8,196 nt of DNA from a virus (taxonomy: Duplodnaviria > Heunggongvirae > Uroviricota > Caudoviricetes). Within the stretch, counting starts at the first letter, position 1, and each line of letters starts with the position of its first letter. The notes beneath the pieces are model-generated. The model ran no database searches. It had not been told where the DNA came from and was given only the letters and a program-made list of their open reading frames with translations. The position numbers and the translations under genes were made by a program. The stretch lies in the IMG/VR virus record IMGVR_UViG_2671180984_000037, one strand, 5' to 3'. This document shows positions 75 to 7,081 of the stretch, piece by piece.

Positions 75-1361
75 TTACCCTGCTTTCTTATGGGGCATAC
101 ATGGGACACTTTCAGATAGTCTTTTGTTAAGGAGTTCTATCTGTTCGTGATTGTTGTCTTTCATCCATGCTCCGTAAACATTGAATACCATTTGTGCGTT
201 TGTGTGGCCCATCTGGCTTGCGATAAAACTAGGATTAGCTCCTGCGGCAAGTGACCAGCATGCATAAGTATGCCTGGATTGGTACGATTTTCTGTGTCTC
301 AGACCTGCGCGTTTTAAGATACTTGTCCATGACTCCCTGATGGAGTCAACCTTGTAGTGAGGTCCGGACAACTGCTGCTGTTTTGTTACCTGAGGACTAA
401 AAACAAAAGTGCATTTATGCACAGCAGTTCTCCCATATTCCCTCTGCTTCACCTCTACAGAATGTTGCTTTCCAAGCATGGTCATTTCCGCCTGGCTTTT
501 AAGAGCATCAATAGCTGGTTGAACCAGATGAATTGTCCTTCCGGTGCCTGCATCGGTTTTTGGTGGAGTGAATTCGCCAAGTTTTGTATAATTTCTACGG
601 ATGGTTATAGTCCTTGCTTTAAGGTCTATATCTTCCCATGCCAGCGATACCAACTCCCCGTGACGAATACCCGTGTATACAGCGAGAATCCACAGGTTTT
701 TTGTTTGTTGATGACGGCAAGCCTCAATAAAACGAATAAATTCGTCACGGGTGAGAGGATCTGGTTTTACCTTGGACTTTTTTAAGGGAGCCAGACCGTT
801 AAATGGGTTTCCTGAGGTATAACCATTATCTGTTGCAAATTGAAACATTCCAGCTATGGTTGTCATATAGTAGTTTACCGTGACCACTGAGCGCCCTTTT
901 ATGGAAGAAGTCTTTCCATTAGAAAGCTTTTGGTAACCGGTCAACAAATCTCTCCTTACGAAAAGTAAATCCTCTTTTGTTATGGATGAAACCAGTTTTT
1001 TTTCACCTAACATTGGTAACATGTTTTTAATTACTGACTGGTAACGGTTAAGTGCATTCGCACAAATCTCAATTTTCTTAAGGTCCAACCATTTTTCCGA
1101 AAGTGCCTTAACGGTTATCTCTCTTTTTCCCAGACCAAAGTGTTTCAGGTTAGGGGAATTAGGGAACTGCGCGGCGTAGTCGAAACTCCCCATTCTGATT
1201 GCAAAACAAACGGAAGTGCGAAGTTCACCAGCGATCTTCCGGTTTTTGTCTGTGTCAGGAACACCGAGGTTTTCTCTGACACGTTTGCCATTATAGTGAA
1301 ACCATATACGGAGTGATCCTCCATGGTTTTCAACGCCTGTCGGGTATGATGCGTTACTCAT
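75..1361 (-). CDS. int: Phage integrase, tyrosine site-specific recombinase (428 aa)
   Basis: Full-length minus-strand ORF with ATG at 1361 preceded by GGGAGG 4 nt upstream. C-terminal catalytic region carries the tyrosine-recombinase signature (LRHRKSYQSRHTYA ... MVFNVYGAW, i.e. the H-x-x-R box and a downstream catalytic Tyr). It is the last gene of the leftward operon and sits next to a small excisionase-like gene. Confidence 0.9.
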   Translation of the reverse strand: MSNASYPTGVENHGGSLRIWFHYNGKRVRENLGVPDTDKNRKIAGELRTSVCFAIRMGSFDYAAQFPNSPNLKHFGLGKREITVKALSEKWLDLKKIEICANALNRYQSVIKNMLPMLGEKKLVSSITKEDLLFVRRDLLTGYQKLSNGKTSSIKGRSVVTVNYYMTTIAGMFQFATDNGYTSGNPFNGLAPLKKSKVKPDPLTRDEFIRFIEACRHQQTKNLWILAVYTGIRHGELVSLAWEDIDLKARTITIRRNYTKLGEFTPPKTDAGTGRTIHLVQPAIDALKSQAEMTMLGKQHSVEVKQREYGRTAVHKCTFVFSPQVTKQQQLSGPHYKVDSIRESWTSILKRAGLRHRKSYQSRHTYACWSLAAGANPSFIASQMGHTNAQMVFNVYGAWMKDNNHEQIELLNKRLSESVPCMPHKKAG

Positions 1362-1394: not shown

Positions 1395-1649
1395 TTAACC
1401 GGAACTTGCATTTTTGGCACCTGGTTGTTTCTGGTTTTCGATCCATCGCATAATTTCTTCGATGTTGTACAGGCATTCACTGTAATGCCCAGGATCACCT
1501 TCTACAGCGTAATGGCGGTATTCTTTTCCCTGCATCCATGACTTTCTTCTGGCCCGCTCGATGGTGCCGGGCTTTAGCCCTGTTGATGCAATAAGGACTC
1601 TCTCCGTACACCATTTGCTGGGGGTTATCTGATAGATGATTGTCTGCAT
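1395..1649 (-). CDS. Excisionase-like small DNA-binding protein (84 aa)
   Basis: ATG at 1649 with GAGGT 5 nt upstream. Small basic protein immediately upstream of and co-oriented with int, the canonical xis position. Assignment rests on position and size plus a remembered resemblance to the DUF1233-type phage excisionases; not confirmed by search. Confidence 0.55.
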   Translation of the reverse strand: MQTIIYQITPSKWCTERVLIASTGLKPGTIERARRKSWMQGKEYRHYAVEGDPGHYSECLYNIEEIMRWIENQKQPGAKNASSG

Positions 1650-4036: not shown

Positions 4037-4129
4037 TTTGTTCTCCACGTATATGCGCTGCACCGCGCTGAATTCTGGTAAAAGGAAGCCCTCACCATCC
4101 GGCGATTATTGAGTAAATTATGTTTCCAT

Positions 4130-4151
4130 AAATGCCCCCGCAGGGGCATTT
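4130..4151 (-). other. Perfect 9-bp stem / 4-nt loop hairpin (AAATGCCCC cgca GGGGCATTT) directly after the yfdQ-like stop
   Basis: Read directly from the sequence. It lies in the 127-nt gap between the yfdQ-like and yfdR-like genes. The downstream minus-strand sequence (AUGGAAAC) is not U-rich, so it is not a classical intrinsic terminator; more likely an intercistronic stabiliser or partial terminator. Confidence 0.35.
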
Positions 4152-4163
4152 GCAGTAATGAAA

Positions 4164-4988
4164 TCAGGCGGTGAAAGTACCAATAAAGGTTTCTACTTTG
4201 CTGTCTTTAAATTTCTCAACAAGCAGATCACGAAATTCGTTAGCCATTTCTTCCTGCACCGCTTCCAGCTGAATAATGCGCAGAACCAGTACAGGACGAT
4301 CGCCAGTGATAATGCTGAGGCGTAATTTAAACGGACGTTCTTTCAGGCCTTCAAACGGAACGCATTTAAATTCAAATGCCACTGGCATAATGTCTTTGGT
4401 CTTCGCTTCGACAGACTCCATCAGGGAGCGTTTGCCGCTGAAGTCATTGTCTTCAAAATCAGCGGTCTGGTTCGCTTCAATTGTGATTTTACGGATCGCC
4501 GCAGCCGCTTTGGTTGCCTGAATGGCGTCACCATTAGCATCAAAGCCCACAAGGTAGTCGGCCCAGTCTTCAATCCATTCTGCCAGTGACTTTTGGGAGT
4601 TACGCTCGCCATTAACAGACAACAGAGCAGAGAACGGTGCTGTCTTTTTCAGTTTGAGAGTGGCGGTGTTATCTGCGTGACCTGGTTCATCAATAGTACC
4701 CAGGTTAAGCACACTGACGGCACGCATATTATCGGCATCGATAAAGCAGCGGGTGCCTTCATCTGCAAGATCTTTAGAATAACGGGTAAAGTCATCGATG
4801 CTGGCAGTGGAAAGCGCACCACGGAAACGGAAGCGATTTAAATTAAATTTTTCCAGATCATGAATGCGGAAATTCTCAGGCAATGCCACAGCATCGGCAC
4901 CAATCTTACTAATAATTTCATTAACACCCTGAGCAGAAATAAGGGCATGGATTTGATTAATTGCGGTTGCGTCTAAGTTCTGAGACAT
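4164..4988 (-). CDS. yfdQ: YfdQ-like phage protein (DUF2303 family as remembered), 274 aa
   Basis: ATG at 4988 with GAGGA 7 nt upstream. The 274-aa length and position immediately upstream of the HD-domain gene match CPS-53 yfdQ. Function unknown. Confidence 0.65.
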
Positions 4989-5053: not shown

Positions 5054-5416
5054 TTAATGACCTGCTGCGCGGAGTTTTCCGTCAGGTTCACCGGCAAGAG
5101 TCAGTAATTGTCCCTGGTCTTCCTGCAGAATAGTCAGGCGACCACCGCGATTGACATACATCGGCGTTTCGGTGGTGTCTTCTTCGGAAATTTTCCCGCG
5201 GTTAGTCGGACGAACATATGAGAGTTTGTGTTTTATTTTCACACGGTTCTCATCAAACGGTTCGATTTCCAGGTTGAGCGAGACCTTCCCTTTGGTTTTC
5301 GTGTTCATCACACCTGAAGCGACTTCACTGAGAACAGCGCCGATTTTGGTTTCAAATACGCCGCCGTCCAGCTCCCCGATAAATGCCTGCACATCAGTAC
5401 TGCGTTCGCTAGCCAT
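5054..5416 (-). CDS. yfdP: YfdP-like hypothetical protein (120 aa)
   Basis: The ORF track extends this frame to 5647 (197 aa) from a non-ATG start. The internal ATG at 5416 has a strong GAGGAG 7 nt upstream and gives exactly 120 aa (MASERSTDVQAFIGELDGG...), matching the remembered size of CPS-53 yfdP. The upstream extension overlaps strongly structured DNA. Confidence 0.55.
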   Translation of the reverse strand: MASERSTDVQAFIGELDGGVFETKIGAVLSEVASGVMNTKTKGKVSLNLEIEPFDENRVKIKHKLSYVRPTNRGKISEEDTTETPMYVNRGGRLTILQEDQGQLLTLAGEPDGKLRAAGH

Positions 5417-5464
5417 TTTGCTGCTCCTCATCATATCGACCCTGCAAGGTCGGTTGGTTTCTCC

Positions 5465-5553
5465 ACAAAACAGAGAAGAGCACCTGCGGTGGCAGCCGCC
5501 CGGGTGGATTGGGTTATGAGCCCGTCGTCCGGTGATGCTCTTCTCTGTTTTGT
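5465..5553. repeat. 18-bp perfect inverted repeat (ACAAAACAGAGAAGAGCA / TGCTCTTCTCTGTTTTGT) around a 53-bp GC-rich spacer
   Basis: Arms at 5465..5482 and 5536..5553 are exact reverse complements, read directly from the sequence. Located in the PL leader 50-140 nt upstream of the yfdP-like start codon. Confidence 0.8.
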
Positions 5554-5599
5554 AAAAAGAGCGGTACCAGCCGGAAGCAAGTGTACAAACTGGTACCGC
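5552..5599 (-). terminator. Terminator/attenuator-like hairpin in the early-left leader: 10-bp GC-rich stem (GCGGTACCAG / CTGGTACCGC), about 19-nt loop, then UCUUUUUAC on the minus strand
   Basis: Inverted repeat 5561..5570 / 5590..5599 read directly. On the transcribed (minus) strand it is followed by TCTTTTTAC (plus 5552..5560). The loop is larger than in typical intrinsic terminators, hence low confidence. Confidence 0.35.
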
Positions 5600-6000
5600 C
5601 AAAGCAGTGGCTGTTGTGGTGGGGTTGTCACTCAGGCGTATGGTCAACCTGACAATCCGGTGTCCTCAACGGGGAAAGAGTAACCCCGCCATACTTACCG
5701 CCGCGCCATTTCGCGGATGACCACAACGCTGAGAGCACTTAGCCAGTTACGGCACCACACTTTGTCGCGGCTCCATAAATGCCCTCATCGTTGCACCCTG
5801 GTCTCTTCCCAGGCGTCAAACCGGATCGCCACGCTGGTTAGGCGTCTTATCAGCATCATCATTGACTTGCACATTCCGGCTACCTGGTTTGTTTGCCCTA
5901 GCAAGGAGTGGATTGTCCCCTTTAACGTCCCCAGACCGCTAACGACGCATGTGCCATACGCCGTGTTACAACCAAATTTTGTTTGAATCTTGCCTGCCTC

Positions 6001-6045
6001 ATGTTTCTTTTGGATACATTATGTATCTCATGGGTACATTGTCAA
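6001..6045 (-). promoter_or_regulatory. PL-type early-left promoter (-35 TTGACA, 16-bp spacer, -10 CATAAT on the minus strand) overlapped by two 19-bp operators
   Basis: On the minus strand, TTGACA corresponds to plus 6040..6045 and CATAAT to plus 6018..6023. Operator-like 7-5-7 palindromes: ATGTATC-tcatg-GGTACAT (6021..6039) and ATGTTTC-ttttg-GATACAT (6001..6019), centres 20 bp apart. The same half-site recurs at the cI/cro divergent region. Confidence 0.6.
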
Positions 6046-6072
6046 GTATAAAAAAACCTGCCGAAGCAGGTT
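6046..6072 (-). terminator. Rho-independent terminator downstream of the cI-like repressor gene
   Basis: Stem AACCTGC / GCAGGTT (6055..6061 and 6066..6072) with CGAA tetraloop, followed on the minus strand by UUUUUUUAU (plus 6048..6056). Sits 13 nt after the repressor stop codon and just upstream of the PL -35. Confidence 0.65.
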
Positions 6073-6084
6073 CATAAATATTGA

Positions 6085-6759
6085 TTAGGCCTTTATTGTG
6101 TATCTTCTTGGTTTTCCCGAGAAAATCACTGTACCAATTATAGAGCAATTACCGTTAATCTTAATGTAAGGCTCAGGCCAGTTTGGGTTTAATGCTTTGA
6201 GATAACGCTGTGTTCCATCTTCTATCAATCGCTTGAAGGTGGTTTCGCCTGTATCGTGCATCAATGCAATAACGTCGTCACCGTGGCAGGCAGGGACTTC
6301 GGGATCAACAAAAATCATGTCTCCAGGGCGGTACTCATCAATCATTGAATCACCAATCACCCGCAAGATATAAGTCATTTCGCCACAGGGTACAGGGCAG
6401 GGATACGTTTCTGCTGTGCTCAAATCAACCTCAGAATAGCCAACTTCTTTCCATGCTCCGGCCTGTACCCATGATATGACAGGGACTAACGTTATTTGTT
6501 TGTTAGTGATTGAAACATCAGGTTTTTTTGTGATGTTCGTTGTCTGGTGTTCTTGATCAAGCCATCCGACAGGCAGGTCGAAACATTTTTCGATGTGGCG
6601 TGCCATGCTGTCACCGATATTTTTAGTAGCGCCATCCCCCATAAACCTGCTGGTTTGGGTTGGCTCGCGATCAATCATGGTGGCAAAGGATGAATTTCCG
6701 CCAACACCATCTCTCAGTTTTCTGGCGTTAGACCGCCGGATGTCATGGATTGTTTTCAT
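6085..6759 (-). CDS. cI: CI-type phage repressor, N-terminal HTH plus C-terminal LexA-like S24 peptidase domain (224 aa)
   Basis: C-terminal domain has the autocleavage catalytic motifs VIGDSM (Ser) and TFKRL (Lys), and a linker Ala-Gly (WVQAGAW) as the candidate cleavage site. Divergent from a Cro-like gene with operators between them. No Shine-Dalgarno before the ATG, consistent with a leaderless PRM transcript as in lambda cI. Confidence 0.9.
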   Translation of the reverse strand: MKTIHDIRRSNARKLRDGVGGNSSFATMIDREPTQTSRFMGDGATKNIGDSMARHIEKCFDLPVGWLDQEHQTTNITKKPDVSITNKQITLVPVISWVQAGAWKEVGYSEVDLSTAETYPCPVPCGEMTYILRVIGDSMIDEYRPGDMIFVDPEVPACHGDDVIALMHDTGETTFKRLIEDGTQRYLKALNPNWPEPYIKINGNCSIIGTVIFSGKPRRYTIKA

Positions 6760-7050: not shown

Positions 7051-7081
7051 CAGAACACCTTCAATTTTTAACCACAGAACG

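Follow-up and report, generated by a model that had tools for sequence, protein, structure and literature searches.

In the PL leader of phage lambda, nutL and an RNase III site lie ahead of the N gene, and the tRNA region of phage T4 carries the species 1 and 2 RNAs. Closer to the subject of this work is the dicF locus of the Qin prophage, where RNase E makes the 5' end of the 53-nt DicF RNA, the 5' end of a stable 190-nt species is due to RNase III, and a terminated ydfABC-dicF transcript of 1,146 nt is accompanied by a read-through transcript of 1,608 nt (PMC5069750; PMC10448788); much of the transcription stops at the DicF terminator, and the 190-nt form is stable in stationary phase (PMC10448788). 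In the P1 record a 'dicF-like region' with its own terminator is situated about 50 nt after the C1-controlled promoter Pban, and is followed in order by tRNA-Asn, tRNA-Thr, tRNA-Ile and ban. Here we analyze the leader of the PL transcript in an 8,196-nt stretch of DNA from a virus of the Caudoviricetes (IMG/VR record IMGVR_UViG_2671180984_000037; this whole stretch is called the window below), which contains the immunity and early-left region of an Escherichia coli lambdoid prophage. We find that the leader is a mosaic of conserved non-coding RNA modules on the PL-sense (minus) strand, which sequence comparison relates to the known dicF small-RNA locus and which recur beside tRNA genes in other phages. 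The dicF homology, the P1 'dicF-like region' and the 190-nt DicF species are already known. What appears to be undescribed is the covariation-supported fold of the module that we term Block B, the presence of a second RNA domain (Block A) in three phage lineages, a slot that these RNAs share with tRNAs, and a PL leader lacking N that constitutes a DicF-less variant of the locus.

A first-pass annotation of the window had pointed to a near-consensus PL promoter followed by about 590 nt before the first convincing start codon. Both observations stand: the promoter hexamers match the consensus at 11 of 12 positions, which would place the transcription start near 6010, and no credible gene precedes the yfdP ATG at 5416 with its Shine-Dalgarno sequence GAGGAG. 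In the order of transcription, the features of the region are:

6018-6045, minus strand: PL promoter, with the -35 element TTGACA at 6045-6040, a 16-nt spacer and the -10 element CATAAT at 6023-6018
5980-6010, minus strand: leader 5' end, some 30 nt differing from phage to phage; in the alignment, homology between phages starts at AAATTTGGTTGTAACACGG
5778-5979, minus strand: Block A, a conserved structured RNA domain (homologs and covariation)
5728-5787, minus strand: linker hairpin GAGGGCAU...GUGCUCUC, directly 5' of Block B and overlapping the 3' end of Block A (folds)
5613-5727, minus strand: Block B, a four-way-junction RNA (alignments, covariation and RNAalifold)
5554-5612, minus strand: spacer and DicF-type hairpin GGCGGUACCAG...CUGGUACCGC followed by UCUUUUU, here called t1 (fold and alignment to DicF)
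5465-5553, minus strand: long Y-shaped hairpin with a 25-bp stem, A-rich on its 5' side and U-rich on its 3' side (fold and homologs)
5414-5454, minus strand: small hairpin (5454-5435), Shine-Dalgarno GAGGAG (5429-5424) and yfdP ATG (5416-5414), by fold and sequence; RefSeq places yfdP here

Similarity searches show that the leader is made up of blocks with sharp borders. Over 5300-6150 the identity is 100% with the strain MBT-5 chromosome and 98-99% with 2H10, Ayreon, cdtI and Stx2c phages. Of 5,426 complete E. coli genomes, 905 carry the leader at a coverage of at least 80%, as do at least 24 phage records. The analysis accounts for a common stretch, unannotated or mis-annotated, that is carried by about one in six complete E. 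coli genomes and by Stx2c, cdtI, mEp460-type and other phages. As noted in the first pass, it is richer in G+C than its surroundings (0.52-0.565 across 5300-5999 against 0.355-0.475 in the nearest flanking intervals), and its minus-strand fold taken as a whole is more stable than those of shuffled sequences (z = -4.4). Many G-U pairs are possible solely in the minus-strand sense, which indicates that the structured strand is the one transcribed from PL. The RNA of Block A contains more G than C, and this bias together with the heavy structure fits a long untranslated leader that must escape Rho.

Block B is closed by a stem of GUUGUGGU (5727-5720) with ACCACAAC (5620-5613), within which lie P2, P3 with a variable arm P4, and P5. 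In an alignment of 19 distinct sequences, whose relatedness means that few independent changes underlie the counts, 93.5% of the cells are paired as against 34-52% when the partners are slid, and nine pairs have changed on both sides as against zero to three in the slid controls; none of 500 shuffles reaches the observed values. RNAalifold independently recovers the junction. Several unrelated hairpins substitute for one another as P4, and a candidate pseudoknot, GUAUGG:CCAUAC, fits all the Block B sequences with only one covarying pair (U-A, U-G, C-G). When the window is folded as a single sequence, the junction is outcompeted by a pairing of about 15 bp between the 5' flank plus closing strand CUCAGCGUUGUGGUCA (5733-5718) and the P5 loop region UGACCAUACGCCUGAG (5651-5636). 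We set this long-range pairing aside, as its complementarity is not kept in the Qin-type, L036 and F1055 sequences when the alignment is read; it might be either coincidental or a second conformer peculiar to the lineage of the window. The closing stem was likewise considered as an integron attC site and rejected on inspection, since GTTGTGG / CCACAAC mismatches GTTRRRY / RYYYAAC.

As sampled, Block B occurs in Escherichia, Shigella and Salmonella phages and in P1-like elements, with further loci in E. albertii and E. ruysiae. The latter two were the real ones among five loci read from a pattern scan of a genome collection, a scan that was too loose, in that it returned 120 mostly chance-like loci; the matches in Kluyvera, Proteus and Gilliamella fell in an unrelated stretch. 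A copy also turned up in the Actinobacillus phage vB_Apl-pPE4 (L352, 1440-1760), within what is an E. coli Rac-type dicA-kil-recE region; it lacks the 5' closing strand, and the small RNA cargo downstream of it is tandemly duplicated. The host assignment or assembly of this record may deserve a check.

Block A comprises a hairpin CGGCG...CGUCG, the invariant string GGUAGCCGGAAUGUGCAAG (5884-5866), a hairpin CCUGGGAAGAGACCAGG (5813-5797), and a further hairpin that reads CACCAGC...GGUU in the window and CACCAUC...GGUG in most homologs. These homologs, of 70-98% identity, are found in P1-like phage-plasmids (P1, P7, D6 and SJ46), phiV10, SPN1S, Tyrion, Klebsiella Uetakevirus phages and mEp390, and none of the inspected records has an RNA feature annotated on the domain. 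Their contexts differ: in the P1-like locus L006 Block A directly follows the 3' end of tRNA-Ile and precedes ban; in epsilon15-like (Uetakevirus) phages, phiV10-type ones among them, that infect Escherichia, Salmonella, Klebsiella and Enterobacter, it belongs to a non-coding island between the portal and terminase genes, upstream of tRNA-Arg; and in mEp390 it lies within the PL leader. Among 11 sequences from five phage groups, related ones again with few independent changes underneath, 97.9% of the cells are paired, against 28-40% in slid controls, and seven pairs have changed on both sides; RNAalifold was also run. Three of the covarying pairs are in the hairpin CCUSGGAAGAGACSAGG. The invariant strings GGCACAU and AUGUGCC are complementary and never vary, and may form a second, candidate pseudoknot. 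Invariant stretches of up to 21 nt extend across lambdoid, P1-like and Uetakevirus phages with Escherichia, Salmonella, Klebsiella and Enterobacter hosts; full-text literature searches with the invariant strings returned no relevant paper.

The linker hairpin between the two blocks is kept in phiV10-like loci. In other loci its place is taken by an insert of about 100 nt (L320, L348, Salmonella phage F1055 (L351) and SPN1S (L356)) with two hairpins that bear the T-loop-like sequences CUGGUUCAAUUCCAG and GGUCCGUUCGAUUCGGACC and are possibly pieces of tRNAs or T-loop modules. Right after Block A, the Rfam tRNA model also identifies tRNA genes that are unannotated in the records of Klebsiella phage BUCT711 (L354, 1427-1500) and Salmonella phage SPN1S (L356, 1426-1499). 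In SfV and in the e14 prophage the place of Block A, right after PL, is occupied by an ORF of about 100 residues (orf33, L002 2218-2514; ymfJ, L360 3209-3517), neither of which has a Pfam match.

The structure of Blocks A and B is thus conserved by compensatory change. Aligning homologous prophages had been suggested in the first pass as a way to look for such changes, and they are found in both blocks and at the apex of the long hairpin. A covariance search of Rfam, the other check it had proposed, returned nothing: none of the 4227 families of Rfam 15 matches the leader, either at the gathering threshold on the window or permissively (E up to 10) on 5300-6150, where the sole weak signals came from the cI terminator, which resembles terminator-type small RNAs. 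ARAGORN reports 0 tRNA or tmRNA genes in the window, and neither ARAGORN nor the Rfam tRNA model at E up to 10 recognizes Block B. The analysis therefore exposes two covariation-supported RNA domains outside Rfam.

The leader is non-coding. It had been described as holding only ORFs that do not look like proteins, and a conserved coding ORF across it had been named as what would speak against an RNA element; its mechanical ORFs span 30-89 residues, and the tests show no coding signature in them. In the YmfH-type frame (5431-5631, minus strand), compared with e14, SfV and F1055, substitutions are distributed 13/22/15 over the three codon positions, a pattern without the third-position bias of the control genes under the same test (1/1/30 for cI and 1/0/7 for yfdP). 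In Block A the homologs differ by indels of 1, 4, 7 and 13 nt, mostly not multiples of three, and share no open frame. The ymfH frame of the K-12 annotation of e14 is also open in the window, across t1 and the long hairpin, and the N-terminal halves of the predicted YmfH-like proteins are unrelated between phages. The e14 gene itself (L360, 2502-2813) corresponds to window 5431-5631 and spans a cassette described below (cassette iv), a DicF-type hairpin terminator and the long hairpin. As the homologous frame has no coding signature, K-12 ymfH is probably a mis-annotated non-coding RNA region. The records of Ayreon, cdtI, 2H10 and other phages place 'hypothetical proteins' at 5489-5683 (plus) and 5785-5904 (minus), with the strand differing by record; these annotations, which overlap Block A, Block B and the hairpins, are probably spurious. 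The yfdP frame, for its part, is open upstream as far as a TTG at 5647, giving a mechanical ORF of 197 residues (5054-5647, minus strand) that crosses the long hairpin and t1; RefSeq and SfV begin yfdP with the ATG at 5416, behind a good Shine-Dalgarno sequence.

Two further hairpins separate Block B from yfdP, and correspond to the U-tract hairpin and the 18-bp perfect inverted repeat that had been read off the sequence at the outset. The first (5600 to 5561, then UCUUUUU) has a predicted energy of -21.5 kcal/mol (z = -3.3), and its counterpart in SfV is annotated as a rho-independent terminator. We regard t1 as a predicted intrinsic terminator that might also serve as the 3' domain of a small RNA. 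The string CGCUCUUUUUA, which overlaps t1, resembles boxA; the boxA reading was dropped, as the string is not conserved in e14, SfV and F1055. The second, the long hairpin, is formed by arms of 25 nt (5465-5489 and 5529-5553) that are 88% complementary around the 18-bp perfect core, and is predicted at -50.7 kcal/mol (z = -6.9). It is kept in e14, SfV and F1055, its apical hairpin reading GCGG/CCGC in the window and GCUG/CAGC in F1055, a compensatory change. It is a likely RNase III site and a candidate for a second terminator.

The relationship to dicF emerges from the 3' half of the leader, which sequence similarity identifies as homologous to the dicF locus. Matches to window 5621-5727 are present in thousands of E. 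coli genomes; those in Qin- and Rac-type prophages sit between ydfC (or a DUF1391 gene) and dicB. Block B as a whole (5613-5727) is homologous throughout to Qin-type prophages at 82-94% identity and more weakly to P1 and P7, where it makes up the 'dicF-like region'. In a Qin-type prophage the Rfam DicF model matches 26 nt downstream of the Block B homolog with 73.4 bits. Aligning the window with Qin shows a block of about 115 nt kept, then a loss of 19 nt that include the DicF 5' seed, then a resumption at UUUGGCGGUACCAG (UUUGGCGGUAUCAG in DicF), followed by a different hairpin and a U-run. By coordinate count in the Qin-type locus L004, stepping back 190 nt from the DicF terminator leads to a point 2-5 nt upstream of the closing stem of Block B, which implies that the DicF RNA of 190 nt consists of Block B, the spacer and DicF. 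The predicted fold of this locus has a long-range stalk, CCGUGCGCUU / AAGCGCACG, that encloses the 190-nt unit and where RNase III could plausibly cut. On either side of the window's unit, Block B plus hairpin, stand instead the linker hairpin (5787-5728) and a hairpin of 25 bp (5553-5465).

What follows Block B is variable. Among 149 instances in the fetched loci there are at least nine downstream cargo classes (e.g. canonical DicF, 75; the window type, 36; the P1 type, 18), and every class shown has or ends in a T-run, most of them forming a terminal hairpin. These results tie the DicF small RNA to a wider modular family that consists of one conserved folded 5' domain and at least nine hairpin cargo variants.

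Block B is itself one of several occupants of a slot whose flanks are invariant among related phages: ...GUGCUCUCAGC / GUUGUGG ... CCACAAC / AGCC...UUGGCGG.... Depending on the phage, the slot contains Block B, a genuine tRNA-Arg(UCU) whose acceptor stem starts inside GUUGUGGCA, or one of two other cassettes. Cassette iii (GAAUGCGCAGGCUGAUGCGCGAAAGACAUUGCAG...) is about 125 nt long, has the closing stem of Block B and folds as a stem with three arms; it is carried by the IMG/VR loci L276, L251, L302, L320 and L348, by L006 (about 4611-4790) and by Tyrion (L357). In the P1-like plasmid it comes after tRNA-Thr, with a closing stem GUUGUGAUG/CAUCACAAC that shows a compensatory change. Cassette iv, from e14 and SfV, consists of a 9-bp closing stem and five hairpins (z = -2.8). 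In the fetched loci, with counts biased by the fetching scheme, the slot holds Block B 132 times, tRNA-Arg 29 times, cassette iii 25 times and cassette iv three times, and a run of at least five T follows within about 200 nt in 131 of the 132 Block B copies and in 184 of the 189 cassettes overall. In epsilon15-like phages Block A, the slot (with tRNA-Arg) and a DicF-type terminator occur together away from any early operon, an arrangement that fits a locus for an RNA product. That these modules are associated with tRNAs in three phage lineages suggests a common, so far undescribed logic in how they are processed or function.

These observations lead us to favor, at about even confidence, an explanation in which the PL transcript begins with an attenuating, small-RNA-producing non-coding leader. 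On loss of the cI-type repressor, PL would transcribe a multi-domain non-coding RNA in the order Block A, linker hairpin, Block B, t1 and long hairpin, with Blocks A and B folding. Part of the transcription would stop at t1, attenuating yfdP, yfdQ and the genes on to xis and int. Cuts by RNase III in the long hairpins on either side would trim the precursor ending at t1 to a stable RNA, about 170-190 nt long and made of Block B and the hairpin, which RNase E might shorten further. Read-through transcripts would be cleaved at the long hairpin and yield protein from yfdP onward. The hairpin with its U-run after Block B is there to be read; it is by analogy with the published Qin data that we infer partial termination, processing through RNases III and E, and a stable product. 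Of the possibilities raised in the first pass for an RNA-level control element, a prophage-encoded regulatory RNA gains from the homology to the dicF locus, whereas its example of an HK022 put-like site fares poorly, for reasons of similarity, size, fold and the lack of a PR-side copy that are set out below.

Several observations weigh against this attenuating, RNA-producing leader. The single-stranded DicF seed that pairs with xylR, UUUCUGGUGAC, is not in the window, being part of the 19 nt that are deleted by comparison with Qin, and also missing is the AU-rich spacer that RNase E cleaves in Qin, so a separate small RNA of about 55 nt may not be released. The Rfam DicF family (RF00039, gathering threshold 48 bits) does not match the window, nor 5300-6150 at E up to 10. 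The 3' hairpin of DicF pairs with the translation start region of ftsZ; for the window hairpin, pairing with that region did not rise above chance (duplex energy z = +0.4), in a test that barely separates its control, DicF itself reaching only -1.4. Finally, efficient termination at t1 and the long hairpin would demand a mechanism of antitermination that this explanation does not provide.

PL lies directly downstream of the cI/ymfK terminator (6073-6054), its -10 element is overlapped by a palindrome, GATACATTATGTATC, that is likely an operator, and the genes around it are as follows:

75-1361, minus strand: integrase
1395-1649, minus strand: DUF1233 excisionase
minus strand: DUF4222, DUF551 and HD-domain (YfbR-like) genes
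4164-4988, minus strand: yfdQ (DUF2303)
5054-5416, minus strand: yfdP
6085-6759, minus strand: LexA-family cI/ymfK repressor
plus strand: cro and a CII-like gene, separated by a gap of 31 nt only (7051-7081)

Directly after the yfdQ stop there is a 9-bp G+C-rich hairpin, AAAUGCCCC-UGCG-GGGGCAUUU (4127-4150, minus strand), annotated as a terminator in Ayreon; it could be a second terminator within the early-left operon and as such bears on the need for antitermination.

Among the other explanations, the one that retains most is that the leader makes stable RNAs acting in trans, which we rate as unlikely: Block B, its sister cassettes and Block A would be the first to be expressed on induction and would be released in the manner of tRNAs, as tRNA-like decoys, protein sponges or anti-defence RNAs, with the hairpin being merely a terminator. 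It draws on the single closing stem within which Block B, tRNA-Arg(UCU) and the multi-hairpin junctions of cassettes iii and iv alternate, on the P1 ban operon, where Block B, cassette iii and Block A are interleaved with its three tRNAs, and on the stationary-phase stability of the 190-nt form (PMC10448788). In a published screen, moreover, the e14 'ymfH' clone, which comprises cassette iv, the hairpin terminator and the long hairpin, triggers the retron-Sen2 toxin; we take this as a lead only. Against it, the tRNA-finding programs do not recognize Block B, and the free swapping of the P4 arm argues that it is not an anticodon mimic; it also overlaps with the attenuating leader and does not exclude it. 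In a broader form, to which we accord the same low probability, the leader would be one copy of a mobile non-coding RNA operon common to lambdoid, P1-like and epsilon15-like phages, in which Block A is followed by an interchangeable slot for tRNAs or junction RNAs, all processed in tRNA style and acting in trans, e.g. as decoys against host defences or RNA-targeting enzymes. If true, this would mean a new class of phage stable RNA that is absent from Rfam.

Somewhat less probable still is that Block A, Block B or both act in cis, as put does, binding RNA polymerase from the nascent PL RNA so that it passes t1, the long hairpin and later terminators in place of N. The absence of a lambda N-like gene from the leftward operon, claimed at the outset, is borne out in that no ORF of this operon has an N-type Pfam match, with the reservation that a divergent N may escape Pfam; how phages with no detected N-type protein pass their early-left terminators is a question that this locus raises. 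Both blocks lie between PL and the first terminators, with the hairpin after yfdQ lying further on, and in P1 Block B precedes a terminator that has to be read through for the tRNAs and ban. The strictly invariant single-stranded stretches, too, suggest a macromolecular partner. However, a comparison with the PL-nun region of HK022 gave only chance words of 10-14 nt, the modules are multi-helix domains of 115-200 nt rather than two stems of about 70 nt, and the window has a single instance of each block's signature, with no copy on the PR side. In the slot of Block B, moreover, tRNA-Arg or unrelated cassettes are found while the terminator stays, and the replacement by a tRNA is more in keeping with an RNA product made by processing than with an element that modifies RNA polymerase in cis; in Qin, much of the transcription stops at the DicF terminator just past Block B.

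That the leader is a functionless mosaic, made of remnants from former phage islands of tRNAs and small RNAs that recombination has brought along and that are simply tolerated in the gap from PL to yfdP, seems improbable. Sharp module borders, cassette swapping and the T-arm-like fragments of related loci would all be expected of such a relic, as would the exchange in SfV and e14 of Block A and the linker for a protein ORF (orf33, ymfJ) and of Block B for cassette iv; set against these are the compensatory changes that keep the helices of both blocks, the invariant stretches of up to 21 nt across three phage groups and four host genera, and the occurrence of the full leader in 905 E. coli genomes. 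Hidden small protein genes, be it the YmfH-like ORF or the Ayreon and cdtI hypothetical proteins, are very improbable: the YmfH frame is open across the long hairpin in both the window and e14, and annotation pipelines call ORFs here, but the codon-position counts, unrelated N-terminal halves, frame-breaking Block A indels and record-dependent strands given above all speak against translation, and the YmfH-like start is a GTG that on direct reading has no Shine-Dalgarno sequence.

Set beside the described systems, the attenuating leader that we favor shares with the stable-RNA and tRNA clusters of phages such as T4 the production of non-coding RNAs from a polycistronic early transcript, with unknown stable RNAs among the tRNAs there, and differs in that the window has no tRNA. 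Like putL of HK022 it is a structured RNA just past PL in a lambdoid phage lacking N and ahead of terminators; HK022 has a putL and putR pair, alike in sequence and each of about 70 nt with two stem-loops, which antiterminate without protein factors by way of the beta' zinc-binding domain of RNA polymerase, in contrast to the single-copy domains of the window. With the lambda PL leader it has in common that PL and the first gene are separated by a long hairpin, possibly cut by RNase III and possibly affecting expression of that gene, and it is distinguished from the lambda leader by the lack of an N gene and by a boxA-like string, CGCUCUUUUUA, that is not conserved. The ban operon leader of P1 and P7 comes closer: there, too, Block B with its own terminator comes right after a repressor-controlled promoter, Block A is found 3' of tRNA-Ile and cassette iii after tRNA-Thr, although the P1 modules are spread over about 3 kb among genes and tRNAs, whereas Blocks A and B are adjacent in the 590-nt leader, and the cargo hairpin is unlike that of the window. 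From the Qin dicF locus, which includes the long untranslated region of dicBF, the leader differs in the diverged loop and 3' arm of the hairpin, in having Block A rather than ydfABC upstream of Block B, and in a local 25-bp hairpin in place of a long-range stalk. The two nevertheless agree in a Block B with about 90% identity to the stretch that directly precedes DicF, in a terminator arm that starts with UUUGGCGGUAYCAG and is followed by a U-run, and in belonging to a repressor-controlled early-left operon whose downstream genes depend on read-through.

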